DNA of 64,000 bases, from contig CAYVOL010000001.1 of assembly GCA_964453135.1 (NCBI GenBank), positions 88,895 through 152,894 of the forward strand, written 5' to 3'. A model generated the notes under the pieces. The model did no database searches. It was not told the origin of the DNA and saw nothing but the letters and a program-made list of their open reading frames with translations. Below are positions 9,202 to 63,672 of the stretch, piece after piece. The first letter of the stretch is position 1. Every line of letters begins with the position of its first letter. The DNA comes from an uncultured Candidatus Saccharibacteria bacterium (GTDB lineage Bacteria > Patescibacteriota > Minisyncoccia > UBA6257 > UBA9933). The translations under genes were made by a program, and so were the position numbers.

Positions 9202-11556
9202 TTAAGATTTTAGATTTTTCTCCACCCGCTTCAGAAGCACGGCATTCGTGGCCACCACGATCGAAGAAACAGACATGAGGAGCGCGGAAATTTCCGGTCG
9301 GAGCGAAAGGCCGTACGCTTTGTAGAACACTCCGGCGGCAACCGGAATCGCAAGTATGTTGTAAATCGCGGCCCAGAAGAGATTCTGTTTCATTTTCACG
9401 ACTGTCGCCTTGGAAAGGCGGATTGCCGCGACGATGTCGTAAGGATCGGATCTCATGAGCACGATATTGCCCGTTTCTATTGCGACGTCAGTCCCGGCGC
9501 CGATCGCGATGCCGATATCGGCTTGCGCCAAAGCCGGAGCATCATTAATGCCGTCGCCGACCATAGCGACAAATTTCTTCTCGTCTTGAAGCTGTTTTAC
9601 ATATTTCGCTTTCTCTTCCGGCAAAACTTCGGAAAATACGCGATCAATGCCAAGATCGCTTCCTACGACTTCGGCGACTTTTTTGTGATCGCCTGTGATC
9701 ATGACGACTTCGATGCCGAGTCCTTTGAGGCCAGCCACGGCTTTCTTTGCCGATGGTTTCACCATATCCGCGGCGGCAACGACGCCGGCAATATTTCCGC
9801 CGACGGCGAGCAAACTCAACGTTTTTCCTTCCCCAGCGAGGCGATCGAGCGTAGCACGCGCATCGCCGACGTTTACATTATTATTCGCCATCAACTTTTC
9901 TGTTCCAGCAAGCACGGTTTGCCCCTTAATCTCCGCTTTGAGGCCATACCCGGCAACCGACTCAAATTTCTCTATCGGTTCGAGCGGTACCGCACCTCGT
10001 TTCGTCGCTTCTTCCATGATTGCCTTTGCCAAGGGATGGTTAGATCCGAATTCAACACTTGCCTCATAGCGAAGAATTTCCTGCTCCGTGAAGCCGTTGA
10101 AAGCAGCGACATCGGTTACTTTCGGTTTGCCTTCGGTGAGCGTTCCAGTTTTGTCGAGCACGATCGCGTTGAGCCTTGATGTGTTCTCAAGCGTTGCAGC
10201 GTCTTTTATTAAGATACTGTGCTTCGCACCGACGCCGGTTCCGACGGCCACGGCTGTAGGCGTGGCAAGCCCTAAAGCGTCTGGACAAGCAATCACAACC
10301 GTGGAGACGGCAAACGTAAGCGCAGTTAAGAGCCCCGCGGCTGCGATAAAATACCAACCGAGAAATGCCGCAAGACCGGATCCGATCGCGACAATCACAA
10401 GCCAGCCAGCCGCCTTGTCCGCAATACGCTGGCCGGGCGCTTTGGAGTTTTGAGCCGTTTCTACCATCTTGATGATCTGCGCGAGCACCGTTTCGGAGCC
10501 GACCTGCATGGCCATGAACCTCACCGTGCCGTTCTGGTTCACCGAACCGCCGACGACTTTCGCGCCGATGGTTTTTGAAATCGGCATGGATTCGCCCGTT
10601 ACGAGAGATTCATCGATTGAAGTTTCTCCTTCGGTTATTTCGCCGTCAACCGGCACCTTGTCGCCCGGCCGCAGAACGACAATATCGTCGCGGACAATTT
10701 CCGCGCTCGGTATATTCATCTCGACACCACCGCGAATCACGTTCGCTTTCGGCGGCACGAGATCAAAAAGCGCGCGCAAAGCATCCGAGGTGCCGCGCCG
10801 CGATTTCATTTCCATCCAATGGCCGAAAAGCACGAAGGTTACCAGAAGCGCCGCCGCCTCATAAAAAGTTTCCGAATCCGGTTTGATAATCGTGAGAAGT
10901 ACGCTGAAAATATAGGCAGCCAATACGCCGGTGGCAATCAATACTGCCATATTGAGTTTTTTTGCTTTGAGCGAATAGTAGGTGCCGGTGATAAAAATGG
11001 AGCCGGTCCAGAAGACAATCGGCGTCGTGAGTACCAAGAGCGCCCAATTCAAAATCTGAGGCGATGCGATGTGAAGTTTTAGAAGATTCGCGCCGACCGG
11101 CGAGAAGAAGAAAATCGGAATGGACAAAATAAACGATATAAAAAATCTGCGCTTCATGTCGCGCTCCATCTGCTTTGCCATCGAGGGATCGGTCATTGCG
11201 GTCTCGTGATCCATGTGGCTCATCTTCGACATGTCATGCCCGGCGTGCTCGCCGCCCTTTCCGGCTTTTTTCTTCTCCGGAATCAGATCCATGCCGCACC
11301 CGGGGCATTTGCCCGGACCCGATTTGCGCACCTCCGGATGCATGGGACAGGTATAAATCGTTTCCCCACCGCTGTGACCGGCATGCTTCTTGTGCGCCAA
11401 TTTCTCGCCCATGCCGTACTCATATTGCTTCGCCTCCATGCCGCACCCGCAGGTGGCCGCGAGCTTTTCCGCGGCACAACCAAGGCACTCCTTGCCGCAC
11501 GCGCAATTAAGCTTTCTCTCTTTTTCCATATTCATATTGTGATGATCGTGATTCAT
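9202..11556 (-). CDS. copA: Copper-translocating P1B-type ATPase (CopA family). It has a His/Met-rich N-terminus with CxxC motifs and a 'CPMHP...CPGCGM' metal-binding motif. The TM6 motif reads CPD instead of CPC.
   Basis: 'DKTGTLT' phosphorylation site, 'GDGINDAPAL' hinge, 'TGES' actuator, 'IACPDALGLATP' in TM6, eight TM helices, 784 aa. Confidence 0.9.
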   Translation of the reverse strand: MNHDHHNMNMEKERKLNCACGKECLGCAAEKLAATCGCGMEAKQYEYGMGEKLAHKKHAGHSGGETIYTCPMHPEVRKSGPGKCPGCGMDLIPEKKKAGKGGEHAGHDMSKMSHMDHETAMTDPSMAKQMERDMKRRFFISFILSIPIFFFSPVGANLLKLHIASPQILNWALLVLTTPIVFWTGSIFITGTYYSLKAKKLNMAVLIATGVLAAYIFSVLLTIIKPDSETFYEAAALLVTFVLFGHWMEMKSRRGTSDALRALFDLVPPKANVIRGGVEMNIPSAEIVRDDIVVLRPGDKVPVDGEITEGETSIDESLVTGESMPISKTIGAKVVGGSVNQNGTVRFMAMQVGSETVLAQIIKMVETAQNSKAPGQRIADKAAGWLVIVAIGSGLAAFLGWYFIAAAGLLTALTFAVSTVVIACPDALGLATPTAVAVGTGVGAKHSILIKDAATLENTSRLNAIVLDKTGTLTEGKPKVTDVAAFNGFTEQEILRYEASVEFGSNHPLAKAIMEEATKRGAVPLEPIEKFESVAGYGLKAEIKGQTVLAGTEKLMANNNVNVGDARATLDRLAGEGKTLSLLAVGGNIAGVVAAADMVKPSAKKAVAGLKGLGIEVVMITGDHKKVAEVVGSDLGIDRVFSEVLPEEKAKYVKQLQDEKKFVAMVGDGINDAPALAQADIGIAIGAGTDVAIETGNIVLMRSDPYDIVAAIRLSKATVVKMKQNLFWAAIYNILAIPVAAGVFYKAYGLSLRPEISALLMSVSSIVVATNAVLLKRVEKNLKS

Positions 11557-13780: not shown

Positions 13781-13929
13781 GTTTTTGAGATTTAATTTGT
13801 ATTCTACCTTTGCTATGCCGCATATTTTTCCGAATCTCCGTCGAAGTGCTCCTTGCAAGATTGCAAACAAAAGTAATTGAGCAGCCGTTAACCAGCGGAT
13901 TATCCGCGTAGCTGCAAACGCCCGTATTA

Positions 13930-14193: not shown

Positions 14194-14202
14194 GTTGGTA
14201 AA

Positions 14203-14589: not shown

Positions 14590-14619
14590 TTTATTTTTTC
14601 TATATTCTTGCTTCGGCCT

Positions 14620-15075: not shown

Positions 15076-15515
15076 TGGCTGTGTCGTTTAAATTTCATGA
15101 TTCGACTATACAGGAACGCAATGCCGCCAAGATTGAATGCGATGCCGACCCAGAAAAACTGCACTTGATAGACGCTGATGAACGACACGAAGGCCGAGAC
15201 GCCTAATACCGGCAGGATATTCACGAGATAATGGGCACAGCAGGAAATTATCGCTCCAGTCGAGGTGGCGCCAGTTACCGCAAGCAGCTTGCCGCTCGGA
15301 TCTTTGGCGCGCACCAATGCCTTGAGATAGCTATATAAGCCGACTTGGATTCCAAAACCAGACGCAAGACTTATAATGAAGTACCAAAACTGCGAGAACT
15401 GGCTCGCCGCAAATATTAGCCCCGATATCACAGACACAACCCCGAAATAAACCGCAAGGAGAATGGCTGCTGCTTCAAATCCTTTTATGATTGATGGGGC
15501 AATGATGCGATCCAT
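15072..15515 (-). CDS. Four-TM membrane protein, hypothetical (contains 'CCAHY')
   Basis: ORF track; hydrophobic; its stop overlaps the start of the upstream gene (15072/15075). Confidence 0.45.
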   Translation of the reverse strand: MDRIIAPSIIKGFEAAAILLAVYFGVVSVISGLIFAASQFSQFWYFIISLASGFGIQVGLYSYLKALVRAKDPSGKLLAVTGATSTGAIISCCAHYLVNILPVLGVSAFVSFISVYQVQFFWVGIAFNLGGIAFLYSRIMKFKRHSQ

Positions 15516-15517
15516 AG

Positions 15518-16141
15518 TTATTTCAACTTGGCGAGTTCTGTTGCGACCTTGTCGTTGTCAATCGCCATATTCGGATCGTCGAACGTATAGCGTACAATCC
15601 CCTGTTTGTCGACAAGAACGAAGCTGTGTCCAGGAAACGATCCGTAGTGCATCGAGGAAGGAACCGCGAGCATGCCGAATTTCCGCGAAACGGATTTGTC
15701 GGTATCGAAGAGCAGCGTCGCCTTTCCTAGTTCTGGCATTTTCTGCACCGCGCTCTGCCAGCTCGACGGCTGGTCTATTACCACCGAGAAGGCAACCGTG
15801 TCCGGTCCCGTAAACCGAGGATCGGTTGCAAGCGATACCATCTGGTTCCAGCACGCGGGGTAACACATGATGCCTTCGTTAAAGAATAACACCGCTTTTT
15901 TCCCTTTCAAGCTCTCATTTGAGTATTCGGTCCCGTTGCGGTCCCGGAGCGAAAATGCCGGAACAGCTTTTCCTATGAGATCGCCATAGGATCCCGAAGA
16001 GTCCGAACCGCCAGAGTGCATTGGATCGCCGGTTGTCCCTCCTGATTGCGAATTTCCGCGGCTCATGAAATAGAAGCCGCCAACGACGAATGCGATGATC
16101 GCGATGCCCGCGACAATTGTTGATGTGTTTTTATTTTTCAT
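15518..16141 (-). CDS. Thioredoxin-fold redoxin (TlpA/ResA/AhpC-TSA-like thiol-disulfide oxidoreductase), membrane-anchored
   Basis: N-terminal TM helix, 'KAVLFFNEGIMCYPACWNQ' CxxC active site, thioredoxin-fold length. Confidence 0.7.
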   Translation of the reverse strand: MKNKNTSTIVAGIAIIAFVVGGFYFMSRGNSQSGGTTGDPMHSGGSDSSGSYGDLIGKAVPAFSLRDRNGTEYSNESLKGKKAVLFFNEGIMCYPACWNQMVSLATDPRFTGPDTVAFSVVIDQPSSWQSAVQKMPELGKATLLFDTDKSVSRKFGMLAVPSSMHYGSFPGHSFVLVDKQGIVRYTFDDPNMAIDNDKVATELAKLK

Positions 16142-17043
16142 GGTTGTTGTTTTTCTTTTTTCCCGCCCGAGGCGGATCCGCCTTCGGCGGAAAGCTGGCG
16201 GATGCCGGTTGCCGCGAGCCAGGCGAAAATCACCACAATGAGAATCGCCCAGACGAACTGCGGCACGCCGCCGATGAATTGGTTAAGCCACATTTGGACT
16301 TTTGTAAGGAAGATGTTCACGTTGATCTGTAATTCGGAATGCATGGCGACATTGCCGGTCAATGCCCATATCAAGGTCAATACGCCCATAACCGCGAAGG
16401 TCGCTCCGGCGAGGAAATCCGATATCCGAAATGTTTTATCTTTTCCGAAGATGCGGACCGTGACTGGCTTCCGCGCACCAAAAAGCCGATCAGTCAAATG
16501 CGAGCGATCAAACATCAAAGAAAGAGCAAAGAGCGGCGCGACCATGCCGAGCACATATGCCAAAGTATAGACGATTCCCCAGAGGTACGACCCCGGGAGC
16601 ATAGAGAGCGCAAGCGCTCCCGCCAATACCGGCGCACAGCAGGTGGTCGCAATGCCGGAAAAAATGCCCAGCATATAAACGGACCCGATGCTTTCCTTTC
16701 CGGTAAGTTCCGGCTTCGGCCGAAACCGCTTCGGTAGCGCAAACCGGCGGCCAGTAAGAAGTGAGATGCCGAGCGCAAGTAGCACTAATCCGATGACAGT
16801 AAAGATTATCGAGTGGTAGCGGCTGAAAATCTGGCCGAGCGCCGAGATGCCAAGTCCGAGCGGCAGGAAAACCGTCATGATGCCGAGAAAGAAAATGAAT
16901 GTCATCAAAAACACCTTCCGACGCGTCCTAAAGATCGAACCGAGATACGACGGCAGAAGCACTGTAACACAACATGGGGCGAAAAGCGCCGCTACCCCTG
17001 CGATGAATGCCGCTATAAGCGATGTGCCAATGAGTATTTCCAT
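16138..17043 (-). CDS. ccdA: Cytochrome c biogenesis protein CcdA / DsbD-family transmembrane thiol-disulfide electron transporter
   Basis: 'FIAGVAALFAPCCVTVLLPSYLGS' and a second conserved Cys ('ATTCCAPVLAGAL') in a polytopic membrane protein. Confidence 0.8.
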   Translation of the reverse strand: MEILIGTSLIAAFIAGVAALFAPCCVTVLLPSYLGSIFRTRRKVFLMTFIFFLGIMTVFLPLGLGISALGQIFSRYHSIIFTVIGLVLLALGISLLTGRRFALPKRFRPKPELTGKESIGSVYMLGIFSGIATTCCAPVLAGALALSMLPGSYLWGIVYTLAYVLGMVAPLFALSLMFDRSHLTDRLFGARKPVTVRIFGKDKTFRISDFLAGATFAVMGVLTLIWALTGNVAMHSELQINVNIFLTKVQMWLNQFIGGVPQFVWAILIVVIFAWLAATGIRQLSAEGGSASGGKKEKQQP

Positions 17044-17047
17044 AGCG

Positions 17048-18079
17048 TTATACCCCGCAACCGCCTTGTTGCCTCTGCGGCTGAATTATTTGCGACTGTC
17101 CGCTGTCCACGCCGCATCCGCCTGGGCGTTGCGTCGGCGGTTCGGGAACGACAAGCGATTGAATTCTCGCGTATCCTTGTATGCTTGAGTACGAAGCTCC
17201 CAGTACTTCAGCCGGATTCACCGATGACCAATTCGTTCCTTTGCTTTGGAAGTATCGCGCAATAGTCCGGTAGGTGTCCGGAAACCAGTAGGAGTTCACG
17301 GCGAGCGCGGTTTTGTACATTTGATCTTCGCTCGCGCCCTGCGAAGCCATGAGCTCTAAGAGCCCAAGCATCGCCATGCCGTGGTTGCAATCCGGAAAGT
17401 ACGTCGAGTTACCGCAACAGGGGCGGTAGATTCCCTTGGCAACCTTTTCAACGAGCGCCTGCTGATCCTCTGTAAGCGCCACAAACTGATGCTTTGAGTA
17501 ATGACTCATGGCATTACCAACGGCAATCGTCCATCCGCCGGTTGATGCAAACCTGCCCGCTCCGCCATACTGCGGATCTTGCATTGGACCTTGCTCAAGA
17601 ATCCGGTTCTTATTGCCAAGACCGAACGCCCAAAGAAGATTCAATACCGCGCCGCTATTCTGCGGAGTAATTTTAAGGTTGCCGTTATCGGGCGAATCAA
17701 GCAACGCCTGCACATCAGAAGGCATTCCTCCGCGTTGCGCATAGAGAGCCTTGAATTGCGTTTCGTCAACTACGCCCGACTGCGCAAGTCGCTTGCCAAG
17801 ATCGCCCCAGCGCACCGGCAGCGCGACGCCTTCCTGCGGCGTAATCGCCTCGGTCAAGGCATCAGCCGATTGCGCGGAGCTCTGTTGCTGCTTCACTGCT
17901 TTGCTTCTTTCCGCCTTCAATCCGGTAGTATATATCCATGTTCCGGAAAACACGAGGACGGAAATAAGAATGCTCCACGCGAGGAAATGGTCTTTTTTCG
18001 GCTGCTCAGGATTGGAGCTTTCGTTATTTAATTCCGCGCGCTCTTCTATTATTTTATCATTGTCTTCCATGTTATTCAT
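17048..18079 (-). CDS. Hypothetical exported or membrane-anchored protein with conserved cysteines ('YRPCCGNSTYFPDCNHGMAM') and a C-terminal 'GGCGV' duplication
   Basis: ORF track; N-terminal TM segment; Cys motifs; no family recognised. Confidence 0.45.
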   Translation of the reverse strand: MNNMEDNDKIIEERAELNNESSNPEQPKKDHFLAWSILISVLVFSGTWIYTTGLKAERSKAVKQQQSSAQSADALTEAITPQEGVALPVRWGDLGKRLAQSGVVDETQFKALYAQRGGMPSDVQALLDSPDNGNLKITPQNSGAVLNLLWAFGLGNKNRILEQGPMQDPQYGGAGRFASTGGWTIAVGNAMSHYSKHQFVALTEDQQALVEKVAKGIYRPCCGNSTYFPDCNHGMAMLGLLELMASQGASEDQMYKTALAVNSYWFPDTYRTIARYFQSKGTNWSSVNPAEVLGASYSSIQGYARIQSLVVPEPPTQRPGGCGVDSGQSQIIQPQRQQGGCGV

Positions 18080-18563
18080 CGCAGCATTCGGCGAGCTTGG
18101 CCACGATGTCTTCGAGGCTCACACTGCCTTTTGCCGCCTTTTTTATAGTTTGGCCTTTGATAAGTTTTAATTTGAGTGCCCAAAAAATGGAGTACGCCTT
18201 GTAGGCGTTTTCGAATGTTTTCTTGGCTTTTTCCTTTTCTCCTTCAACATGCAATTTATTGCCGACTTCGATGAGGCGCATCGTGGCGGCCAAGAGATGC
18301 TTTGAGATACACCACGTTTCGCCCTCATGCTTCGGCATAAGCTGAGCCAAAAGTTCCTTGCGCAATTCCCGAATCTCTGCTGAAGTATCAAAGTATTCGT
18401 CTTGTTTTGTTTTAACGCCTGTAAAGAAAAAATGCTCTTCAAGGCTTATGAGATTCATAACCGCCAAGCTCAAATCCTCGGCAGTGGAAAGATCCACGCC
18501 TGCGTTTTCTTTTTGAGTTTCTATTTTTTTGAGAAATTCCTCAAGGGTCAATTTTGTTTCCAT
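18072..18563 (-). CDS. Hypothetical protein (163 aa) ending in 'LAECCDE'
   Basis: ORF track; coding-like periodicity; no domain recognised. Confidence 0.4.
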   Translation of the reverse strand: METKLTLEEFLKKIETQKENAGVDLSTAEDLSLAVMNLISLEEHFFFTGVKTKQDEYFDTSAEIRELRKELLAQLMPKHEGETWCISKHLLAATMRLIEVGNKLHVEGEKEKAKKTFENAYKAYSIFWALKLKLIKGQTIKKAAKGSVSLEDIVAKLAECCDE

Positions 18564-25971: not shown

Positions 25972-26102
25972 TGTCATTCTTCCCGACCTTCTGTCATTCT
26001 GAATCCGCCAGCCGGCGGAGAAGAATCTCCTTGATTCAACCGGAAAGCTTGCTACTTCGGAACGAGATCCTTCGTCCGCCAACTGGCGGACTCAGGATGA
26101 CG
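25972..26102. repeat. MITE/REP-like nested-palindrome element, copy A (GTCATTCTGA...AAGAATCTC // GAGATCCTTCG...CTCAGGATGAC)
   Basis: Core shared with the seven other copies; internal palindromes CCGCCAGCCGGCGG and CCGCCAACTGGCGG. Confidence 0.6.
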
Positions 26103-44398: not shown

Positions 44399-45148
44399 TT
44401 AATTCCTAAAATGCCAGTGCCAAGGTTCAAACGCCATTCCTATTTTATTATTTTTTGGATAAGAAAGGAAAAAATCAAACTGGCGCGCGTTATGAGTAAG
44501 CCAGCCATATTCTTTTGTCTTATAAAAATTTTTTAAATCGGCAATCCCCCGGCAAGGCGCCACGTCAATGCCCTGAATTTTAACACTGCAATGTTCGCTG
44601 TAAGCAGGCAAGCAAGCCAACCGCAATGTTTTTTTCAAGTCAAAGTCATTGCCAACAAATTTAGAAATAAAAAGCATCACCTGAAACGCCGGAGAACGGT
44701 ACCCGGAATAAACATTGATTTCGCGATTGATGTCGCTCTTCATTTTTTTATTAAGCTCGCGGAAGGCAAGGAAATTGTTTTTTGGCAGGAAGTGGGTGAA
44801 TTCCATTATCTTAATTTCCTTCTTGATGATATAACGCTGTCCTTTAATCGACACTAAATTTTTCGGCACCGGTTCAACGCCTAAAAATCGCGCTTTTATG
44901 CCGTAATTTTTCGGATTAATAAGCAAAACAGCGTCTATCAATTTTTTTTCGTCTTTTGCTAAAAAAGAAAAGAGTCGGTCAAAGGTTATCACCCGAAAAT
45001 CATGATTTTTAACAGCTCCCCTTTCTCCCCGCTCGCAGCGAAACTTTTGGGATATTTTTTCCGCGATTAGGCGATTTTCTTTGTCTAAATTTTCAAAATT
45101 AATCATTTCAATATAAAGATAGGTAATGACTATGCTCGTGTCAATCAA
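44399..45148 (-). CDS. M15-family D-alanyl-D-alanine carboxypeptidase (VanY/LAS-like)
   Basis: 'SGYRSPAFQ', 'PAYSEHCSVKIQGIDV', 'EPWHWHF' Zn-binding motifs. Confidence 0.7.
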   Translation of the reverse strand: MIDTSIVITYLYIEMINFENLDKENRLIAEKISQKFRCERGERGAVKNHDFRVITFDRLFSFLAKDEKKLIDAVLLINPKNYGIKARFLGVEPVPKNLVSIKGQRYIIKKEIKIMEFTHFLPKNNFLAFRELNKKMKSDINREINVYSGYRSPAFQVMLFISKFVGNDFDLKKTLRLACLPAYSEHCSVKIQGIDVAPCRGIADLKNFYKTKEYGWLTHNARQFDFFLSYPKNNKIGMAFEPWHWHFRN

Positions 45149-45323
45149 CGAATTTCATCAACCGAAAGATAAAAGCCCAAAGAAGCCGGAAGATGAAATC
45201 TGGATTAAAAAGTTGCGAGAAAAAAGGGCGTGTTGTAACATAAAACCAGTTCATAGGGACAAATCGTCTTTAACTTACTAAAGCCGCGGCTATACAAAAA
45301 TAGCTCGGCAAGGAGGAAGCGCA

Positions 45324-45665
45324 ATGGGATCCAATGCGGAATTAGAAGAAGCGGGAGGGTCGGCGACGGCGCAAGTGGAGATGTTCGGGCTGTGCGGAGA
45401 AATACTCAACCAACTTCCCCAAGAGACGCAGAAGGACATTCATATCACCATTCACAGGGACTTGATCGCGGAGGTCTTCGTCAGAGAAGGAATGGACAGG
45501 GCAAAAATGACGAAGATAGCCGACATCCAGAAGGTAGTCGGCGATAATAATAACAACGCGGTGGCGGTCAGAGACACATCGGGAAGGATGTACAGATGTC
45601 TCTGCCTGAAAGCCACGGCAGAGACCATCCAGGAGATAGCGACGGCTTTCCTCGCTATCAGATGA
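45324..45665 (+). CDS. Small GC-rich hypothetical protein (113 aa) with a strong Shine-Dalgarno site (AAGGAGGAAGCGCAATG)
   Basis: ORF track; SD spacing; composition differs from the neighbouring genes. Confidence 0.4.
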   Translation: MGSNAELEEAGGSATAQVEMFGLCGEILNQLPQETQKDIHITIHRDLIAEVFVREGMDRAKMTKIADIQKVVGDNNNNAVAVRDTSGRMYRCLCLKATAETIQEIATAFLAIR

Positions 45666-45682
45666 ATTGCCCCTCGCAACAC

Positions 45683-45714
45683 GTCCAGCGTCCCGCCACA
45701 GCGGGACGCTGGAC
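45683..45714. repeat. 14-bp perfect-stem hairpin, GTCCAGCGTCCCGC-caca-GCGGGACGCTGGAC, directly 3' of the 45324..45665 ORF; no U-tract
   Basis: Read directly from the sequence. Confidence 0.55.
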
Positions 45715-45780
45715 AAAACTTCCTCAAAAATATTTTCAAAAAACAAATAGCGGAATTTGACGTCTTATTTCCATTAATGA

Positions 45781-46533
45781 ATGAAATTAATCATTCAAAA
45801 CATCGCAACAGAATATCATGATGAAGGGAAGGGGCAAACTTTATTGTTTCTGCACGGATGGCAGGACAACTCTAATGCTTTTGATTCTTTGATTCCTTTT
45901 CTAAATTCCCGCTTCAAAATAATCAGGGTTGATTTACCGGGATTCGGCAAAAGCGAAGCGCCTCCCGCGATTTGGGAGCTTAATGATTACATCATTTTTG
46001 TAAAAAATTTTATTTCCAAATTAAACCTTGATATTTACGCTTTGGTCGGCCATTCTTTCGGCGGGAGGATTATCATCAAGGGTGCGGCGGAAAAAATTTT
46101 AGATACGGAGAAAATTATTTTGATTTCTTCCGCCGGCATTTCCCAAAACAGCATTCTCCGCAATTTACTGTTTAAAATCTTGGCCAAAGCCGGCGCCTTA
46201 ATCACTTTTATCCCTCCCTTGATTTTTTGGAGGAAAAAATTTCGCGAAACTATGTACCGCGCATTAGGCAGTGATTATTTAGAGGCCGGCGACTTGAAAG
46301 AAACTTATCTAAAAATTATCAAAGAGGATTTGAGTTCCAGCGCCCAAAAAATAACAACGCCCGCGCTTTTAATCTGGGGCGCGGATGACAGAACAACGTC
46401 GCTGAAAGACGGAAAACGTTTGTCGCAGTTAATCCCGAACGCGAAACTGGAAATAATTGACCAAGCCGGACATTTTGTCTGCAAAGAAAAACCGCAAGAG
46501 GTCGCGGAGTTAATTTCTGAATTTCTATCATGA
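45781..46533 (+). CDS. Alpha/beta-fold hydrolase
   Basis: 'LLFLHGWQDNSNAF', nucleophile elbow 'GHSFGG'; 250 aa. Confidence 0.8.
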   Translation: MKLIIQNIATEYHDEGKGQTLLFLHGWQDNSNAFDSLIPFLNSRFKIIRVDLPGFGKSEAPPAIWELNDYIIFVKNFISKLNLDIYALVGHSFGGRIIIKGAAEKILDTEKIILISSAGISQNSILRNLLFKILAKAGALITFIPPLIFWRKKFRETMYRALGSDYLEAGDLKETYLKIIKEDLSSSAQKITTPALLIWGADDRTTSLKDGKRLSQLIPNAKLEIIDQAGHFVCKEKPQEVAELISEFLS

Positions 46534-55993: not shown

Positions 55994-56998
55994 ATGTTAA
56001 ACAAAGACCTCCATCTTTCGCCGAAAATTTTTGAAAACAACATTGAGCAAAAACCTCTGCGCGACGGCTACGGCGAGGGTTTGATAACGGCCGGAGAAAA
56101 AAATTCCAATGTCGTTGTTTTATGCGCGGATTTAAAAGAATCCACCCGCTGCCACTGGTTTGCGGAAAAATTTCCGGAAAGATTTTTTGAGGTTGGCGTG
56201 GCGGAGCAAAATATGGCCACTATTGCCGCGGGATTGGGAGTTTCGGGAAAAATTCCCTTCATAGCCTCTTACGCGACATTTTCTCCGGGAAGAAACTGGG
56301 AACAAATCCGCACCACAGCCGCTTACAATAATTCCAATGTCAAAATCGCCGGACATCACGCCGGAATATCCACGGGCCCGGACGGCGCCACTCACCAGGC
56401 TATTGAAGACATTGCCATAATGCGGGCCATTCCCGATATAAAAGTAATAGTCCCCTGCGACGCAATAGAAGCGAGAAAAGCCACTATCGCGGCCGCGCAA
56501 ATCTGGGGACCGGTTTATTTAAGATTCGCCCGAGAAAAAACTCCGCTCATTACAACCGAAGAAACGCCTTTTACTCCGGGCAAGGCGGAAATTTTCTGGG
56601 AGTCAACAAATGGACGAAAAGCCCAAGTGGCTATTATCGCCGCTGGCCCAATTTTATACCAGACCCTATTGGCCGCCAAAGAATTGGAAAAAGAAAAAAT
56701 CGGCGCTGTTGTTATAAACTGCCACACCATAAAACCACTGGACGTTCAAAAAATAATCGAGGTAGCAAAAAAGTGCGGCGCTGTTGTGACAGCGGAAGAG
56801 CATAATGTCATCGGCGGATTGGGCGGCGCGGTGGCGGAAACGTTGGCAAAAAATTATCCCGTGCCCATGGAATTTATCGGGATGCAAGATTGCTTCGGCG
56901 AAAGCGGCCAGCCCGAAGAATTGGCAAAAAAATACGAGCTAACCAGCAATGATATTGTTAAAGCGGCGCAAAGAGCGATAAGAAGAAAAAAATTGTAG
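55994..56998 (+). CDS. Transketolase, C-terminal subunit (pyrimidine-binding plus C-terminal domains) of a split transketolase
   Basis: 'FEVGVAEQNMATIAAGL', 'GHHAGISTGPDGATHQAIEDIAIMRAIP'; 334 aa. Confidence 0.8.
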   Translation: MLNKDLHLSPKIFENNIEQKPLRDGYGEGLITAGEKNSNVVVLCADLKESTRCHWFAEKFPERFFEVGVAEQNMATIAAGLGVSGKIPFIASYATFSPGRNWEQIRTTAAYNNSNVKIAGHHAGISTGPDGATHQAIEDIAIMRAIPDIKVIVPCDAIEARKATIAAAQIWGPVYLRFAREKTPLITTEETPFTPGKAEIFWESTNGRKAQVAIIAAGPILYQTLLAAKELEKEKIGAVVINCHTIKPLDVQKIIEVAKKCGAVVTAEEHNVIGGLGGAVAETLAKNYPVPMEFIGMQDCFGESGQPEELAKKYELTSNDIVKAAQRAIRRKKL

Positions 56999-57080: not shown

Positions 57081-57206
57081 GTCATTCTAAGTCCCGTCTT
57101 TCCATTCCTCTGTCATTCTGAGTCCCGCTAAGCGGGACGAAGAATCTCATACCGCGGTAATTTCCGGGATGCTGAGCCCCCGCCGTGGCGGGAGCTCAGC
57201 ATGACC
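57081..57206. repeat. MITE/REP-like element, copy C
   Basis: GTCATTCTAAGTCCCG...GTCATTCTGAGTCCCGCTAAGCGGGACGAAGAATCTC...GATGCTGAGCCCCCGCCGTGGCGGGAGCTCAGCATGAC. Confidence 0.6.
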
Positions 57207-57365: not shown

Positions 57366-57947
57366 ATGAAAAGAGACGTGAAGGAAGGACTGCTGGGAGC
57401 AGTAGTGGGAGCGGCGGCGGTTTTGATAGGAGAACAGCTCCTGAAAAAAGCCGGCGCGGCAAGCGCGTCCGGCAACGAGTTTTCCGCGGATATAGCCCGC
57501 GCGAAACTTCAAGACGCCCTTCGACGTCTTGAGGCAAAGAACAAAACCGCGTACCAACGACTGCAAGAAAGGCAAAGGCAGTCGGAGGATCCAGGAAAGT
57601 TCGCCGGTTCACTGAGCAAACTCGTCGTCGCCTTTGACGACAACCCCGAAACGCTTCTAGAAATGCTGGAATGGGCAGGGATGATGGAAGAGCAGGAGTT
57701 CAGCGCTTTTCTTGAAGGCCTAAGCTACGAGCCTTTCGTCTATGTTCTCAAGCGCGCCGGCGTCTATGCCAAAGTCATCTGGGAGAAACTTTATTCCAAT
57801 AGCCCAGATGCGCCGGGGATTCTGCAGAAGATGGATAGGGGGCTCAATCAGCAACTTGGCCCTTTCCTGGAAAGATGGGGAGCAAGCGTCCAGGTGAGAC
57901 AAGACGCCCGAAGGCAAAGGATGGATTCCAGAAGATTCGTCTGGTAA
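57366..57947 (+). CDS. Hypothetical protein, paralog A of the RRQRMDxRRFVW-tail pair (193 aa); SD AAAGGAGAAAGCGGCATG
   Basis: ORF track; strong SD; visibly GC-rich; shares 'IRAKLQD', 'AYQRL', 'LEWAGxM...EFxAFLExL', 'VLKR' and 'RRQRMDxRRFVW' with 59126..59752. Confidence 0.55.
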   Translation: MKRDVKEGLLGAVVGAAAVLIGEQLLKKAGAASASGNEFSADIARAKLQDALRRLEAKNKTAYQRLQERQRQSEDPGKFAGSLSKLVVAFDDNPETLLEMLEWAGMMEEQEFSAFLEGLSYEPFVYVLKRAGVYAKVIWEKLYSNSPDAPGILQKMDRGLNQQLGPFLERWGASVQVRQDARRQRMDSRRFVW

Positions 57948-58145
57948 TTATCGGATTTGCCGAATATTCATAAAAGGCATATAGCACTTATAATATTATA
58001 TCTTAATCATATTGTGGGAGTTTCTTACTCTTTCAGGCTTTAAAATAGCGAGCCCGCCGCTATTATCTGAAGGAGTTTTTTGTTTGTCTTGATTTTATAC
58101 CTGACACTTGTTGCTTGCTTATAGAAGATGACGCGATTCGGAAGT

Positions 58146-58277
58146 GTCATCCTGAGCCCCGTCTTTCTAATTCTTCTGTCATTCTGAGCCCGCCAACTGG
58201 CGGACGAAGAATCTCGTACTGCGACAGAACCAGGGGATTCTTCGTCCCCCGCGCCATGGCGGGGGACTCAGAATGAC
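58146..58277. repeat. MITE/REP-like element, copy D
   Basis: GTCATCCTGAGCCCCG...GTCATTCTGAGCCCGCCAACTGGCGGACGAAGAATCTC...GATTCTTCGTCCCCCGCGCCATGGCGGGGGACTCAGAATGAC. Confidence 0.6.
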
Positions 58278-58464
58278 TTTCCAAACGACGCATGCGGAAA
58301 AAGTCAACCCCGTATATAGCAAATCTGCGCAGATTTGCTATGTGTAAGGTTGACTTTTTCATTAAAATATGCTTTTATAATAGCACGTTCTTCACAATAA
58401 AATATTGGATGATTGCGAACGAATAAGAATATAGATGACAACAACCAACAATGAAAGGAGGGTG

Positions 58465-59115
58465 GCCATGGCCGACAAGCGACAACAGAGAGGACAAAGG
58501 AAGGAATTTCCGGTAAGGATTTTCCTGAAAACCTTATCCCCGCGAAAAGCGGGCGACGTCTATGAGGTGACCGCGGTGGCAACCGTGGTCAAAGGTAAGT
58601 TTCCTCAAGACGGCGTTGCTGTCCAGTTTTTCGTGGACGGCTCGCCGAAAGATTCTGTTGTCGCCGCCGAAAATGGCGGCCGGGCCCTCAAACGGCTTTT
58701 CTTTGAGAAGGAGGGGTTGTACCTGGTTGAAGCCAGAGTAAGCGACCCCAACCTTCCTGGCAACTATGTTGCCAGCGCTGAGGTCAATATCACGGCGGAG
58801 AAGAAAGATCCGCCAAAGCCGGTGGCAGATCTTCTTGTCCGGACATACCAGCTGTCTGCTGGAAAGTTCCGGTTTGAGATTCAGCCGCTGACTGAAAGCG
58901 GCAAGGTGGCTATTGGCGCGGTGGTAGAGATTTTTGACCCCGCGCTTCCTGAGCCGACACGGCAGGCGCTTGAGAAACCCACGGATACGATTTTGTATAC
59001 AGCTGAGGTTTCTCAAAAGGAGAAGTCCAAGACTATCCATTTCTGGGTGATCGGGACCAAGATTGTCAAAAACAAAACAATCTACAACGCCAATGCCGTG
59101 AAGCGTCAGGCGTAA
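58465..59115 (+). CDS. Hypothetical protein (start reassigned to MADKRQQRG after the SD GAAAGGAGGGTGGCCATG); basic N-terminus, beta-rich body
   Basis: The ORF-track frame 58435..59115 has a strong SD 7 nt before the internal ATG at 58465; GC-rich. Confidence 0.5.
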   Translation, partial: AMADKRQQRGQRKEFPVRIFLKTLSPRKAGDVYEVTAVATVVKGKFPQDGVAVQFFVDGSPKDSVVAAENGGRALKRLFFEKEGLYLVEARVSDPNLPGNYVASAEVNITAEKKDPPKPVADLLVRTYQLSAGKFRFEIQPLTESGKVAIGAVVEIFDPALPEPTRQALEKPTDTILYTAEVSQKEKSKTIHFWVIGTKIVKNKTIYNANAVKRQA

Positions 59116-59125
59116 GGAGAGAAAG

Positions 59126-59752
59126 ATGCCACTGGCGAATATTTGGGAATTCCTGGTAAGTGATATTGGCGGGGCTGTGGTGTGGGATGAAGTTCTGAAA
59201 CCCATCCTGAAAGGAGCCGTTGAAAAACACGGCGACAAGATGGGTCAAGTAGTCTACGACAAGTTTTTCACGGACAAAATCCGCGCAAAACTGCAAGACT
59301 ACTTCCGCCTCCTCAGCGAAAGAGGAGAAAGCGGAAGGGCCGCCTACCAGCGGCTAAGGGCCCGCCAGGAAAGGCATCAACGCGACAACACGGAAAATTT
59401 CTTCGTCGAAATGTTGGGGAAAGTTGTCTTGACTTTCGACGGAGAGGATCCCGAGGCCGCCCTGGACATTTTGGAATGGGCTGGAGCGATGAGCGACGAC
59501 GAGTTCAACGCCTTTCTTGAGGCGTTAAACCATGACGCGTTCTTGCAAGTCCTGAAGCGCCTCGGGGGGCACATTAGGTTTGTCTGGAGTAGAATTTACT
59601 CCAGCGACCTGAACGCGCCGGGACTCTGGCAACGCACGAATCAAAGCGTTGACCAGTGGGCAAACCCCTTCCTGAATAGGTGGGAAGGTAATTTACGCGC
59701 GCGACAACAGGAACGCCGACAGCGAATGGACGCCAGACGATTTGTCTGGTAA
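59126..59752 (+). CDS. Hypothetical protein, paralog B of the RRQRMDxRRFVW-tail pair (208 aa); SD AAGGAGAGAAAGATG; 10-nt gap to the upstream gene
   Basis: Shares the same conserved blocks as 57366..57947. Confidence 0.55.
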   Translation: MPLANIWEFLVSDIGGAVVWDEVLKPILKGAVEKHGDKMGQVVYDKFFTDKIRAKLQDYFRLLSERGESGRAAYQRLRARQERHQRDNTENFFVEMLGKVVLTFDGEDPEAALDILEWAGAMSDDEFNAFLEALNHDAFLQVLKRLGGHIRFVWSRIYSSDLNAPGLWQRTNQSVDQWANPFLNRWEGNLRARQQERRQRMDARRFVW

Positions 59753-59778: not shown

Positions 59779-60738
59779 ATGCATAGCATACTGCAAGCGT
59801 TGTGGTTTTTAGTTCAAGAAGTATGGGAGATAGCCGGCGCAGGCGTGGAGTTCACCCAGGTTATTACGAGGGTGAACAGCCACGGCCTCAGCGACCGGCA
59901 GATTTACCTCGCTGGCTTGAGACGCCTGGCGATTCTCGTTATCGTATTGCCCATCCCGCTCTTGGGAGCCAGCATTTGGCTCGGCGGGAGCTGGGCGGCA
60001 TCCGCGGGGATGATCTGGGCAGTCGCTTTTCTCTTGTTGTCTTTGGTCGCCGCCCCGATCGGGATGATTGTGGCGGCCCTGGGCAGTACAACGAGGGAGA
60101 GCGGGGAAAAATATGTGCGGGTTGTGCTATCAGTAGTATTTTCAGAACTGCTGGTAGCATTCTTCCTAGCTGTAGTGCCGATCAGAAATAATATATCGGC
60201 GCTACCCCTGCTAGCGTTGTGCGCGTTTATCATCATCCTTGCCGGAATGAAATTCCTCCGGAAAGGTTTGGTGATTGCGGCAGTGGCGGCATTTGCCCTG
60301 CTGGTGTTTTCGTTCTTCTTCCCAAGGACGTTTGAGCAGAAGATTGCTCCGTCCTTTGAGCGGTTAGATACCCAGATGGCGGCGGCGCCACCCGTGGCGA
60401 CTTCTGCGCCAGCGCAGCAACCCGTTACCGCGGCGCTTCCATCTCCGGCAAGGATTTATCCTAACTACAAGTTCGACCTTGTGGATAGGATTGAAGTTCC
60501 CCTATTGCCGGCTGGGCAAGTGCTTCCGCATGAGGCCGGGGGGTGGGTTATCCTCCCGATGGGAGCGCGCTACCGAGTAGACTACGATACGCCGGTCGTC
60601 ATTGAGTATAATGACGGCCGGAGATTCATACGCCGGCCCAATGAACCCGCGTTTGACGGGGTTCAGCCGGGCAACGGCATTTTCCGTCTTTACGGAGAAA
60701 ACGGCCAAAAAGCCGTTGTAACCATCCGCAAGGACTAG
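59779..60738 (+). CDS. Membrane protein, hypothetical: about six TM helices, a Pro/Ala-rich linker, and a C-terminal soluble domain of about 110 aa; SD GGGAGGAAGTCATG
   Basis: ORF track; hydrophobicity pattern; last gene before a canonical terminator. Confidence 0.5.
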   Translation: MHSILQALWFLVQEVWEIAGAGVEFTQVITRVNSHGLSDRQIYLAGLRRLAILVIVLPIPLLGASIWLGGSWAASAGMIWAVAFLLLSLVAAPIGMIVAALGSTTRESGEKYVRVVLSVVFSELLVAFFLAVVPIRNNISALPLLALCAFIIILAGMKFLRKGLVIAAVAAFALLVFSFFFPRTFEQKIAPSFERLDTQMAAAPPVATSAPAQQPVTAALPSPARIYPNYKFDLVDRIEVPLLPAGQVLPHEAGGWVILPMGARYRVDYDTPVVIEYNDGRRFIRRPNEPAFDGVQPGNGIFRLYGENGQKAVVTIRKD

Positions 60739-60769: not shown

Positions 60770-60810
60770 CCCCCATTGTTCGCGAGAGCAATGGGGGCGT
60801 TTTTATTTTA
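60770..60810 (+). terminator. Rho-independent terminator (stem CCCCCATTG/CAATGGGGG, then CGTTTTTATTTT)
   Basis: Read from the sequence, 32 nt after the stop at 60738. Confidence 0.65.
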
Positions 60811-60837: not shown

Positions 60838-60882
60838 AGATTCATCGCCCCCCGCCATGGCGGGGCGGGGCTCGGAATGACG
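60838..60882. repeat. MITE/REP-like element, single half-module (copy E)
   Basis: GATTCATCGCCCCCCGCCATGGCGGGGCGGGGCTCGGAATGAC. Confidence 0.5.
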
Positions 60883-60938: not shown

Positions 60939-61334
60939 TTACACGCCTCTTAAAACGCTATCAACAAAATCAGGCAAACCGTAAGCCACGAGTCCTATGG
61001 CTATGGCAATCACTGCCCAAAGCAAGGCCTGCTTCGCCTTATCATAATTTTTAGGGTCTGTCGCGCCAAACAAAAAAAGATAGGCGGCGTAAAAAACAAA
61101 ACCAATGGCGAAAATCCAGAAAGCGGTGGCAAACCATTTTAAAAGATTGCGAAAAAGACCCAAAACGCTTCCGCTTCCCCCTTCAACTTGAATAATAGGG
61201 CTATTTCCGGGGCCGGGAGGGCTCACTTGAGTAACACTAACATTATCAGCAAAAGAATGGCGCGGCGCTACTATGAAATACGCGGCTGTAATAACGATAG
61301 AAAAAATGAAAAACAAAGAAATAAGATTTTTCAT
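60939..61334 (-). CDS. TrbC/VirB2-like small two-TM 'pilin' family protein, paralog 1 (131 aa)
   Basis: Signal/TM helix, then 'LKWFATAFWIFAIGFVFYAAYLFLFGATDPKNYDKAKQALLWAVIAIAIGLVAYGLP', the pattern of the type IV secretion pilin family that is frequent in Patescibacteria (family assignment from recall). Confidence 0.5.
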   Translation of the reverse strand: MKNLISLFFIFSIVITAAYFIVAPRHSFADNVSVTQVSPPGPGNSPIIQVEGGSGSVLGLFRNLLKWFATAFWIFAIGFVFYAAYLFLFGATDPKNYDKAKQALLWAVIAIAIGLVAYGLPDFVDSVLRGV

Positions 61335-61351
61335 AAAGATTCTCTTTATCG

Positions 61352-61462
61352 GTCATTCCGAGCCTAGCCACGGCGGGGTGAGGAATCTTGACAGATTCTT
61401 CGCCCGCCTCCGCCCAGCCACAACGGGGTCATAGTGGGGGCGGAGGCGGAACTCAGAATGAC
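61352..61462. repeat. MITE/REP-like element, copy F
   Basis: GTCATTCCGAGCCTAGCCACGGCGGGGTGAGGAATCTTGACAGATTCTTCGCCCGCCTCCGCCCAGCCACAACGGGGTCATAGTGGGGGCGGAGGCGGAACTCAGAATGAC. Confidence 0.6.
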
Positions 61463-61476
61463 AATTTACCTTAATA

Positions 61477-61791
61477 TTATGGATTAAGAATGCTCTGAAT
61501 AAGCGCTGGCAAGCCGTAAACTAAAATTCCAACTGCCATTGCGATAATGGTGTAAAGCAATGCCCTTTTTGCCTCATCGTATTTTTTCGCATCCTGAGCG
61601 CTGAACAAAAAAAGATAGGCGGCGTAAAAAGCAAAGCCGATGGCAAAAATCCAAAAAGCGGTGGCAAACCATTTTTGGAATCGGTCTAAAATCGTAATGA
61701 CCTGCTGCAAATTTTGCGGCCCTCCGCCATCGGCTAAGGCGACAGAAAAAGGAATTATTAAAAGTGATACGGCAACAAAAAATTGAGACAT
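61477..61791 (-). CDS. TrbC/VirB2-like pilin family protein, paralog 2 (104 aa)
   Basis: 'FQKWFATAFWIFAIGFAFYAAYLFLFSAQDAKKYDEAKRALLYTIIAMAVGILVYGLP'. It shares a roughly 70-nt near-identical DNA stretch with paralog 1. Confidence 0.5.
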   Translation of the reverse strand: MSQFFVAVSLLIIPFSVALADGGGPQNLQQVITILDRFQKWFATAFWIFAIGFAFYAAYLFLFSAQDAKKYDEAKRALLYTIIAMAVGILVYGLPALIQSILNP

Positions 61792-61919
61792 AATTTAAAA
61801 ATTTAAAAGTATCGCGGAATGATTATTGAAATGCGCCAAACAATATCGTTATCGTTGCCGACTCCGTTTGCGGGTGAAATAACCGGCGCAAAAGCGGAGA
61901 CGGCAACAATTTTTTAAGT

Positions 61920-62297
61920 TTATTGCCCTTTAAGAAACTGATCCACCAAGAAAGGCAACCCGTAAGCCATTAAACCTATGATTATGGCGATAACGGCGTA
62001 AATCAAAGCGGTCTTTCCTTTCTGATGGCCGTCTTTGGAATGCGAAGCGAACAAAAACAGGTAAGCGGCGTAGAAGATATACCCCACGGCAAAAATCCAG
62101 AAAACAGTGGCAATCCATTTCAGAATAGTTCTGAGAAGTTCTAATGTGCTATTCACACTGCCTATTTTATATCCGGGATTTGTTAGTGGAGCCGTTACCG
62201 GATTTCCTATATTAGCCGTTTCAGCCGCGGCTCCCAAAGGAAAAACCGAAACCGCCGTTAAAGCCAGCAGCAAAACAAAAAATATCTTATTTCTCAT
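61920..62297 (-). CDS. TrbC/VirB2-like pilin family protein, paralog 3 (125 aa)
   Basis: 'LKWIATVFWIFAVGYIFYAAYLFLFASHSKDGHQKGKTALIYAVIAIIIGLMAYGLP'. Confidence 0.5.
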   Translation of the reverse strand: MRNKIFFVLLLALTAVSVFPLGAAAETANIGNPVTAPLTNPGYKIGSVNSTLELLRTILKWIATVFWIFAVGYIFYAAYLFLFASHSKDGHQKGKTALIYAVIAIIIGLMAYGLPFLVDQFLKGQ

Positions 62298-62366
62298 ACA
62301 ATTTATCTCAGTTAACGTTTTCTCAATTAACGACCTTTGAATTGTTTCCAGTATAACACATCATCC

Positions 62367-62678
62367 TTAAACTGTCAGCAATTCTCTGATAATTGCCACG
62401 ATTCCGTAAGCGCACCAGATAGCGGCGTAGCCGATAATCGCCCATTTCAGAGCGTTTGTTCCCTTTTTATATTCTTCGGGTTTGCCTCGGGAAAGAAGCA
62501 TCTGAAAAGCCGCGTAAATAACCATTATAACAAACACAAGAGTAAAAAGACCCATACCGGTGCTGATTACTTTCTGCAAGATATCATTCAAATCATTCCT
62601 GCCAAGAGGATTATAAATTCCGCTGCCCGTGCCGCCTTCCGTTTGAGCTAAAACTTTTTGAATGAGAAGATTTAACAT
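62367..62678 (-). CDS. TrbC/VirB2-like pilin family protein, divergent paralog 4 (103 aa)
   Basis: 'GMGLFTLVFVIMVIYAAFQMLLSRGKPEEYKKGTNALKWAIIGYAAIWCAYGIVAII' shows the same architecture of two TM helices with a short charged loop. Confidence 0.4.
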   Translation of the reverse strand: MLNLLIQKVLAQTEGGTGSGIYNPLGRNDLNDILQKVISTGMGLFTLVFVIMVIYAAFQMLLSRGKPEEYKKGTNALKWAIIGYAAIWCAYGIVAIIRELLTV

Positions 62679-62735
62679 TTTAAGTGAGAGTTATGGCGCT
62701 GTTTGAAAACTTCGACAGAATCAGCTTCTGTTTTT

Positions 62736-62863
62736 GTCATTCTGAGCCCTCCGCCGTGGCGGGGGCGAAGAATCTCTTGATTTTACATTAGCACGAGATC
62801 CTTCGCTTCGCTCAGGATGACATGATGGATTCTTCTCCGCCGGCTGACGAATTCAGGATGACG
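62736..62863. repeat. MITE/REP-like element, copy G
   Basis: GTCATTCTGAGCCCTCCGCCGTGGCGGGGGCGAAGAATCTC...GAGATCCTTCGCTTCGCTCAGGATGAC...GATTCTTCTCCGCCGGCTGACGAATTCAGGATGAC. Confidence 0.6.
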
Positions 62864-62884
62864 GTTTTCGAACAACGCCGAGAA

Positions 62885-63298
62885 TCATTGACAATTAATA
62901 CTGTTCCATGGTCCTAATCCTGGCCCGAGAACAGCCGGACCGCCGCCCAATGACGCGCCCATTAAAATTTTAATCGTAGTATCAATTATGAGCCAAGCGG
63001 CTAAAATAATTACAAAGCCGACAAGCGCCGTGCGAATGGTTTTTAACCCGCTTTGATATAAGGGCGGGTTGGCTCCGGCCACCAACATTTTAATTCCTCC
63101 CCAGACCATAAACGCCACAGCCAAAGAAGCGGCGATTCCTAAAACAAAATTATAAACATTTTGAAACAGCTTAAAAAAATTACAGAAGGTGCACATCGCT
63201 CCGCTTCCTCCGGGCCCGCAAGGCACCAAGGCGGCGCTGGCGGCGTTGACTGTTAAAAAGAAAAATAAAATTGCGGCGACAGTAAAAACGAAATTCAT
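62885..63298 (-). CDS. TrbC/VirB2-like pilin family protein, divergent paralog 5 (start moved to MNFVFTVAAILFF so that it does not run through the MITE); Cys-containing N-terminal region
   Basis: 'LAVAFMVWGGIKMLVAGANPPLYQSGLKTIRTALVGFVIILAAWLIIDTTIKIL'. The N-terminal 79 codons in the ORF track are the translated MITE copy H. Confidence 0.45.
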   Translation of the reverse strand: MNFVFTVAAILFFFLTVNAASAALVPCGPGGSGAMCTFCNFFKLFQNVYNFVLGIAASLAVAFMVWGGIKMLVAGANPPLYQSGLKTIRTALVGFVIILAAWLIIDTTIKILMGASLGGGPAVLGPGLGPWNSINCQ

Positions 63299-63359
63299 TA
63301 TGTAATTTAGTTGTAAGATTCCGTAGCGTTGTTTACGCTTTTCATCGTTGTTTTTGATT

Positions 63360-63489
63360 GTCATTCTGAACGTTTTCGTCATCCTTCGCCCCCCGCCATG
63401 GCGGGGGGCGAAGGATCTCGCAAGATTCTTCGCTACGTTTAGAATGGCAAATGGATTCTTCGTCCGCCAGTTGGCGGACTCAGAATGAC
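63360..63489. repeat. MITE/REP-like element, copy H
   Basis: GTCATTCTGAACGTTTTCGTCATCCTTCGCCCCCCGCCATGGCGGGGGGCGAAGGATCTC...GATTCTTCGTCCGCCAGTTGGCGGACTCAGAATGAC. Confidence 0.6.
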
Positions 63490-63672
63490 AACGGGGCGTC
63501 AGAAATGTAATGGTCAATGTTTGAAATACAAACAACACTCTGATTTCTTACAAATTTAGTTTATCATTTTGCGCGCAATAGGGCAATCCCTTAGTTGACT
63601 TTTAGCTTCTGGCTTTTAGCTTTTAGTTTTAATTCTACATTCTAAATCCTATATTCTATCCAATCTAGTGAT

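Follow-up and report, generated by a model that had tools for sequence, protein, structure and literature searches.

Within a 64,000-nucleotide (nt) stretch of DNA from an uncultured Candidatus Saccharibacteria bacterium (contig CAYVOL010000001.1, positions 88,895 to 152,894; the whole stretch is referred to here as the window), two forward-strand genes between positions 57,366 and 59,752 encode diverged copies, A and B, of a rare helical protein family termed Y. Copy A is an orphan gene, and copy B is the middle gene of a three-gene cassette, X-Y-Z, in which it is flanked by an immunoglobulin (Ig)-like protein (X) and a five-helix membrane protein (Z), the cassette lying next to an array of VirB2-like pilin genes. 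The interest of the locus lies in this undescribed, pilin-linked cassette, encountered in about a dozen short metagenomic loci, the function of which is suggested here by its context. The genes of the pair and of the cassette, and the hairpin that closes the operon, are arranged as follows.

57366..57947, forward strand: paralogue A, 193 amino acids (aa); an orphan, probably monocistronic Y-family copy preceded by an AGGAG ribosome-binding site of its own; hydrophobic, Gly/Ala-rich N-terminus; tail RRQRMDSRRFVW
58435..59115, forward strand: gene X, 226 aa, the first cassette gene; N-terminal Big_1 Ig-like domain and C-terminal CarboxypepD_reg-like beta-sandwich
59126..59752, forward strand: paralogue B, 208 aa, the Y-family member within the cassette, with the tail RRQRMDARRFVW
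59779..60738, forward strand: gene Z, 319 aa, the third cassette gene; five transmembrane helices, a Pro/Ala-rich linker and a C-terminal beta-rich domain
60770..60797, forward strand: intrinsic-terminator-like hairpin of 12 pairs followed by a T-run, closing the X-Y-Z operon

The paralogue pair and its C-terminal tail

A preliminary description of this stretch had presented A and B as paralogues sharing a conserved core and a near-identical C-terminal tail, and both the coordinates and the relationship hold. The similarity is significant on pairwise alignment, with BLASTP aligning the two proteins over their full length at 81/207 identical residues (39%; 61% positives; E=3e-42); a neighbour-joining tree of the Y family places them as sisters with 100% bootstrap, the next relative being the protein of locus L004 (99.5%); and tblastn with both proteins as queries recovers A and B as the only copies in the window. 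At the DNA level just two short stretches remain alignable. Synonymous sites are saturated (proportion of synonymous differences, pS=0.755; Nei-Gojobori method on the codon alignment), so that the comparison of substitution rates proposed for the pair returns a non-synonymous distance (dN=0.49) and leaves the synonymous distance dS and the ratio dN/dS undefined. A and B are, on these sequence comparisons, true paralogues: old, diverged in-paralogues specific to this lineage. Taken alone, the pair is an ordinary lineage-specific duplication.

The motifs previously listed for the two proteins are all present (AYQRL, LEMLEWAG/LDILEWAG, EFSAFLEGL/EFNAFLEAL and VLKR), save that IRAKLQD is not common to both, the shared form being RAKLQD. 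The reported divergence of the N-termini is likewise borne out, residues 8-26 of A being Gly/Ala-rich and borderline transmembrane (mean Kyte-Doolittle hydropathy over 19 residues, KD19, 1.83), and the N-terminus of B being of lower hydrophobicity (KD19 1.21) and more acidic than that of A.

The last 12 residues are identical at 11 of 12 positions, which makes the tail the best-conserved 12-residue window of the alignment (next best 8/12); on shuffling of the alignment columns, the probability that any window reaches at least 11 identities is 0.045, and that the last window does so is 0.0009. Seven of the 11 identical residues are nonetheless encoded by different codons (CGA/CGC, AGG/CGA, CAA/CAG, AGG/CGA, GAT/GAC, AGA/CGA and TTC/TTT). 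Because synonymous sites are saturated and these seven codons differ, the identity of the tail is maintained by selection at the protein level and not by recent gene conversion, and the tail is under stronger constraint than the remainder of the protein.

Neither an RRFVW ending nor the string RQRMD occurs in the other frames of at least 50 codons in the window, and the exact RRFVW ending, regarded earlier as a possible fixed signal, is private to this genome, other Y members terminating in RRYR, RRILR, KGVR, KTYR, LWKF and similar sequences. What extends to the family is the character of the tail: the last 20 residues carry a net charge of +2 to +6 in 13/13 Y members with an intact C-terminus (+4 in A, +5 in B), the tails being basic with interspersed aromatic or hydrophobic residues on whole proteins that are mostly near neutral. 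Such a tail could be a docking, membrane-binding or translocation signal, and the role in secretion or assembly suggested by the preliminary description may thus apply.

The Y family

Y is a rare, undescribed helical protein family. A phmmer search of 1.84 billion cluster representatives with A returned nine proteins of 115-238 aa; further members were gathered by word-indexed searches and a metagenome scan, the metagenome contigs adding three loci, to give about 14 members in total among roughly 15 billion proteins. One originates from the Candidatus Wolfebacteria assembly GCA_016201375.1 (locus L002), and the family so far appears confined to sequence of Patescibacteria or candidate phyla radiation (CPR) type, with no member found in GTDB species-representative genomes, in viral contigs (IMG/VR), or in phage and plasmid records.

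The family alignment is divisible into four parts: an N-terminal helix, small-residue-rich and amphipathic to hydrophobic; a Lys-rich helix (...RAELLxFxRxL); a conserved core (LTKLYxxL...EIFKWLGxMxDEEFDxxLEFLxHD...LKRSW...LYSxDPxxPGLxQK); and a variable C-terminal helix with the basic tail at its end. A and B hold every invariant column of the nine-sequence alignment (K99, E110, W118, F127, E132, Y158, G166, Q169 and R200, in B numbering), and both carry the core pattern ...K-L-(Y/V)...E...W-x-G...(D/E)(E/D)F...LE...Y-S-x-D-x-x-x-P-G...Q together with the basic tail that marks membership of the family.

For B, AlphaFold2 predicts an all-alpha protein of nine helices, with a predicted local distance difference test score (pLDDT) of ~90 over the core (residues 50-150). 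The structure prediction proposed for the core yields a confident helical fold, with no significant fold match to the PDB or BFVD on Foldseek comparison. Y has no match among PDB sequences and no homology to X or Z (hhalign); A and B return nothing above threshold against Pfam, PHROG, NCBIfam and PADLOC, and no family recurs among 13 Y members in Pfam, NCBIfam and PADLOC. A ferritin-like four-helix bundle was considered and rejected: phmmer matches of B alone to ferritin light chain (E=0.03-0.8) were lost with the family profile, and no ferritin was returned by Foldseek against the PDB.

The X-Y-Z cassette

B is separated from X by 10 nt and from Z by 26 nt, with a strong Shine-Dalgarno sequence for each gene. 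On every contig of sufficient length, Y stands between two co-oriented genes that have the sizes of X and Z and are either separated from it by a short gap or overlap it slightly. The arrangement is found in the window and in loci L002, L003, L005, L006, L007 and L008, and partially in L004, L009, L010 and L011. For the flanking genes, a formal test of homology was made only between the window and L002 and L003, giving E=1e-7 and 2e-12 for X and E=0.002 for Z, the profile of which also retrieves the protein P0012; elsewhere it is read from multiple alignment. As judged from gene order and sequence, B is part of a conserved three-gene, membrane-associated operon.

The profile of X matches an intimin Ig-like domain (E=2e-8), and Pfam Big_1 is detected in three of seven X members, single-member matches reaching 7e-6 for Big_1 and 1.3e-4 for CarboxypepD_reg; X is a soluble protein, with no predicted signal peptide or transmembrane helix. 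Five transmembrane helices are predicted in every Z member (290-393 aa), and the even-numbered loops are rich in Lys and Arg, a positive-inside pattern that suggests a cytoplasmic N-terminus and an external C-terminus. In L010, the open reading frame (ORF) at 133-627, which occupies the X position upstream of Y, is chimeric: over its first 71 aa it shares 59% identity with the N-terminus of the neighbouring Y protein (E=5e-23), and its last ~62 aa can be aligned with the beta domain at the C-terminus of X (hhalign E=1.9e-4, probability 48%). Such a Rosetta-stone fusion hints, modestly, at a common site of action for the N-module of Y and the C-domain of X.

Pilin arrays beside the cassette

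Convergent with the cassette, and directly downstream of it, lies an array of five genes for VirB2-like pilins of type IV secretion systems (T4SS; T4SS_pilin, PF18895). Pfam was run on genes 1, 2 and 5, and genes 3 and 4 were assigned by BLASTP similarity to those.

60939..63538, reverse strand: VirB2-like T4SS_pilin (PF18895) array of five genes
60939..61334, reverse strand: pilin gene 1 (Pfam)
61477..61791, reverse strand: pilin gene 2 (Pfam)
61920..62297, reverse strand: pilin gene 3 (BLASTP)
62367..62678, reverse strand: pilin gene 4 (BLASTP)
62885..63538, reverse strand: pilin gene 5 (Pfam)

The cassette adjoins arrays of this kind in 3/3 informative loci, namely the window, with five pilin genes, and L006 and L011, in each of which one or two are visible, and the position beside the arrays is retained at ~30% protein identity. 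The upstream neighbours of the cassette are not conserved: the window has a transketolase gene there, L006 has SecE, and L002 a PaaX/Cas2-like gene. Of the window genes concerned, the downstream array alone matches the T4SS_pilin/VirB2 model PF18895, to which A, B, X and Z show no match.

Within the array, the first three pilin genes are close paralogues (76-97 bits) with a common 187-nt direct-repeat family. The fifth pilin ORF (62885-63538, reverse strand) has a long N-terminal extension across a copy, at 63474-63489, of the repeat element described in the following section, and its true start is probably internal, near MNFVFTVAAILFFF.

Repeat elements and the age of the duplication

The spacers around A, the cassette and the pilin array carry copies of a repeat resembling miniature inverted-repeat transposable elements (MITEs) and repetitive extragenic palindromic (REP) sequences.

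57081..57203, forward strand: MITE-like repeat upstream of A, with terminal inverted repeats GTCATTCTAAGTCCCG ... GAGCTCAGCATGAC, an internal second GTCATTCTGAG unit and a GC hairpin
58146..58277, forward strand: MITE-like repeat separating A from the X-Y-Z operon; identity to the 57081-57203 copy ~85%
57081-57203, 58146-58277, 60866-60881, 61447-61462, 62736-62751, 63474-63489 and 26086-26101: MITE/REP-like repeat sites, with the core GTCATYCTGAGYCCCG, a GC hairpin and ACGAAGAATCTC

The elements are short, non-coding and multi-copy, and have visible terminal inverted repeats at 57081-57096/57188-57203 and 58146-58161/58262-58277 (consensus GTCATYCTGAG...CTCAGRATGAC). The core has 10 matches in the window against 0.06 expected; copies are almost wholly intergenic, most spacers between 57 and 63.5 kb carrying them. 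Two ORFs called across the second full copy (58115..58276 and 58147..58362) are spurious and generated by the repeat.

An element does lie between A and the operon of B (58146-58277), as the preliminary description observed, but its suggestion that the duplication was repeat-mediated is not supported. The copies at 57081-57203 and 58146-58277 remain roughly 85% identical (read off the conservation line) over ~135 nt of non-coding sequence, while the synonymous sites of A and B are saturated, and the repeats are therefore far younger than the duplication. Homology between the regions upstream of A and upstream of X stops at the element, with none detected beyond it, and no remnant of X or Z adjoins A.

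A proposed adaptor of a pilin-linked membrane complex

The explanation favoured here, tentatively and with a probability somewhat short of even, is that X, Y and Z make up a membrane complex connected with the pilin array and that Y acts in it as the cytoplasmic or peripheral adaptor, its N-module and tail serving in docking or membrane binding, with A as an alternative subunit. Y would be a peripherally membrane-associated helical protein on the cytoplasmic side, in which the small-residue-rich, amphipathic N-module and the basic, aromatic/hydrophobic tail would dock it to Z, to an anionic membrane, or to both, and in which the compact helical core (W-x-G...DEEFD...LE and YSxDPxxPG motifs) would hold X. 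A, as a separately expressed copy, has lost neither the tail nor any residue invariant in the family and would therefore fit the same site, its more hydrophobic N-terminus possibly being membrane-inserted. We infer a complex of the three proteins, a docking or membrane-binding role for the tail, and possibly a part for the complex in pilin or pilus function.

Several observations weigh against this explanation. The pilin linkage is drawn from three loci, and neither VirB4 nor other T4SS machinery is found near the cassette in the window or in the related loci. In the model of B, the first 43 residues have pLDDT <50 and the tail helix a moderate 50-77; the model of Z (pLDDT 40, built from two sequences) is unusable and was set aside. 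Basic C-terminal tails are widespread and non-specific. The four genes A, X, B and Z have a GC content of 0.53-0.56 (0.59-0.64 at third codon positions, GC3), against 0.42-0.48 in the housekeeping and pilin neighbours, a contrast that fits a common origin of the four genes and possibly their horizontal acquisition; an accessory island acquired horizontally and unrelated in function would be in keeping with it as well. The interaction, localisation and function proposed for Y, X and Z are drawn here from sequence and gene context.

Positively charged C-terminal tails act as substrate signals for T4SS of the VirB/D4 type, and a first alternative, considered unlikely, is that Y is a secreted substrate or effector bearing such a signal, with X as its chaperone or adaptor and Z as a membrane partner or immunity factor. 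The net-positive last 20 residues of the family, Arg-rich in A and B, the strong purifying selection on the tail and the pilin arrays adjoining the cassette are all consistent with this, as is the account, in the passages of PMC12102498 drawn on here, of patescibacterial T4SS as mostly without relaxases and thought to be co-opted for other functions. The same passages, however, assign these systems to the monoderm mating-pair formation (MPF)-FATA class, in which substrate signals are not defined (PMC12102498). The window and the related loci, which were the sequence covered, contain neither VirB4 nor a type IV coupling protein (T4CP), no effector-like catalytic domain is found in Y, and the tight operon coupling of Y to a membrane protein points to a resident complex.

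The composition of the four genes leads to a second alternative, namely that X-Y-Z and the extra Y copy came in by horizontal transfer as an accessory cassette, such as a system for anti-phage defence or abortive infection with Z as its membrane effector, unrelated to the pilins and placed beside them by a variable region. This reading would account for GC and GC3 values unlike those of the neighbours, for the MITE-like repeats that bracket A and the cassette, for the extremely patchy and rare occurrence of Y, and for the upstream neighbours that vary between loci. It is nevertheless also an unlikely one: PADLOC returns no match for the four window proteins (A, X, B and Z) or for 13 Y members, no integrase, transposase or other mobility gene lies nearby, nothing is found in the phage, plasmid and viral collections, and the cassette has kept its place beside pilin arrays down to ~30% protein identity.

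A nucleic-acid-binding or regulatory role, in which the tail would act like an arginine-rich motif and bind RNA or DNA so as to control neighbouring genes, is considered improbable. No helix-turn-helix or other nucleic-acid-binding domain is detected in Y, most members are near neutral overall, and the tail combines aromatic with hydrophobic residues, a feature of membrane-binding and docking peptides; coupling in an operon to a membrane protein would also be atypical of a regulator. These features are set against an Arg-rich tail (RRQRMDxRR), an all-helical fold in the model and the net charge of +24 of the L002 orthologue.

Ig-like domains are common on phage particles, and the cassette could be pictured as a prophage or phage remnant, with X as an Ig-like decoration protein, Y as a tape-measure- or scaffold-like helical protein and Z as a holin-like membrane protein. 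This possibility is largely refuted and has very little probability left: apart from the Ig-like domain of X, it has in its favour best BFVD fold matches to the N-terminal regions of tape-measure proteins at E=0.19 only, while no significant match is given by BFVD, by the viral contigs of IMG/VR or by PHROGs, nor by GenBank phages for X, Y or Z, and no other phage genes lie nearby.

The polymorphic toxin/immunity pair duplicated by recombination between MITE copies, which the preliminary description had raised and for which two diverged copies with unlike N-termini and a repeat element between them speak, is the least probable reading of all, since its architecture is the reverse of that of a polymorphic toxin, no toxin or immunity domain is found above threshold in A, B and 11 other members (Pfam, NCBIfam and PADLOC) and no defence domain either, no small cognate immunity gene follows either copy (B is followed by the five-helix protein Z and A by a MITE-like repeat, the neighbours of B being its partners X and Z), and the duplication is far older than the repeats and lacks duplicated flanks.

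Other features of the window

The window is otherwise ordinary chromosome, with gyrB, IF-2, TypA, a Mur ligase, Ddl, HtrA, ClpB and an RNase J-like gene. The transketolase gene upstream of A (55994-56998, forward strand) is of the split type, having pyrimidine-binding and C-terminal domains only, and the gene directly upstream of it encodes an RNase J-like beta-CASP enzyme and not the N-terminal transketolase half. On the Wolfebacteria contig L002, a LAGLIDADG-like ORF and a 190-aa protein (PaaX_M, weak Cas2) precede the cassette at 5900-7521, with topoisomerase I, RelA/SpoT and ParB further upstream.

A second GC-rich island at ~9200-18100 (GC ~0.53, GC3 0.58-0.63) includes genes for a heavy-metal P-type ATPase (9202..11556) and a DsbD-like membrane protein (16138..17043), and an unassigned 343-aa ORF (17048..18079); the island has the same composition as A, X, B and Z and may therefore have been acquired as well. 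At ~44500-45800 the coding strand flips from mostly reverse to mostly forward, with a change of sign in GC skew around a 630-nt spacer (45149..45780), which is how a replication origin or terminus would look; a search for a DnaA-box cluster near 45 kb, however, found none.

Comparison with known systems

Among families of catalogued sequence, the nearest likeness to Y is that of DUF5663 (PF18908), a family without known function, in which residues 94-167 of one member (P0006), corresponding to the conserved Y core, align to nearly the whole model (E=9.6e-4); the match, at best 20.1 bits, lies below the gathering cut-off of 23.7 and is given by one of 13 members only, A and B having none, and no mention of DUF5663 was found in the literature searched. 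Polymorphic toxins differ from Y in being variable at the C-terminus, whereas Y varies at the N-terminus and has its most conserved residues in the last 12. The repeats resemble known MITE/REP-like palindromic elements in their length (~125-130 nt), ~16-nt terminal inverted repeats, GC hairpins, multiple copies and intergenic position, and they flank both A and the operon, yet the duplication is unexplained by them.

X resembles intimin and invasin in its Big_1 Ig-like domain, and it has in addition a likeness to CarboxypepD_reg prealbumin-like domains; because it is without signal peptide, anchor or autotransporter part, X is not, as it stands, an intimin-type surface adhesin. The tail of Y is comparable to VirB/D4 substrate signals in its net-positive, Arg-rich last 20 residues, a property that is conserved where the sequence itself is not; the differences are that Y is operon-coupled to a membrane protein and that the patescibacterial T4SS is of the monoderm type.

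The ultra-small Patescibacteria depend on host-cell contact, and VirB2-like pilin arrays are widespread among them. Arrays of 2-11 diverged VirB2-like genes are described in 383 patescibacterial assemblies, with an array reported to be essential in one cultivated species and with the statement that adhesins were not detected; the passages concerned make no mention of pilin-associated accessory genes of the X, Y and Z kind (PMC12102498). The X-Y-Z cassette is a concrete candidate for such an accessory function, uniting an Ig-like protein, a fold-orphan helical protein with a selected basic tail, and a membrane protein with a predicted external domain; were the pilin link merely positional, the locus would amount to an ordinary lineage-specific duplication in a rare orphan gene family. 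X, Y and Z differ from the genes of the published arrays (PMC12102498) in not being pilins and in matching no T4SS component model in Pfam, NCBIfam or PADLOC, and no VirB4, VirB6 or coupling protein adjoins the cassette; they resemble them in taxon and in place, the cassette that contains copy B immediately adjoining an array of just this type in a member of the same group.

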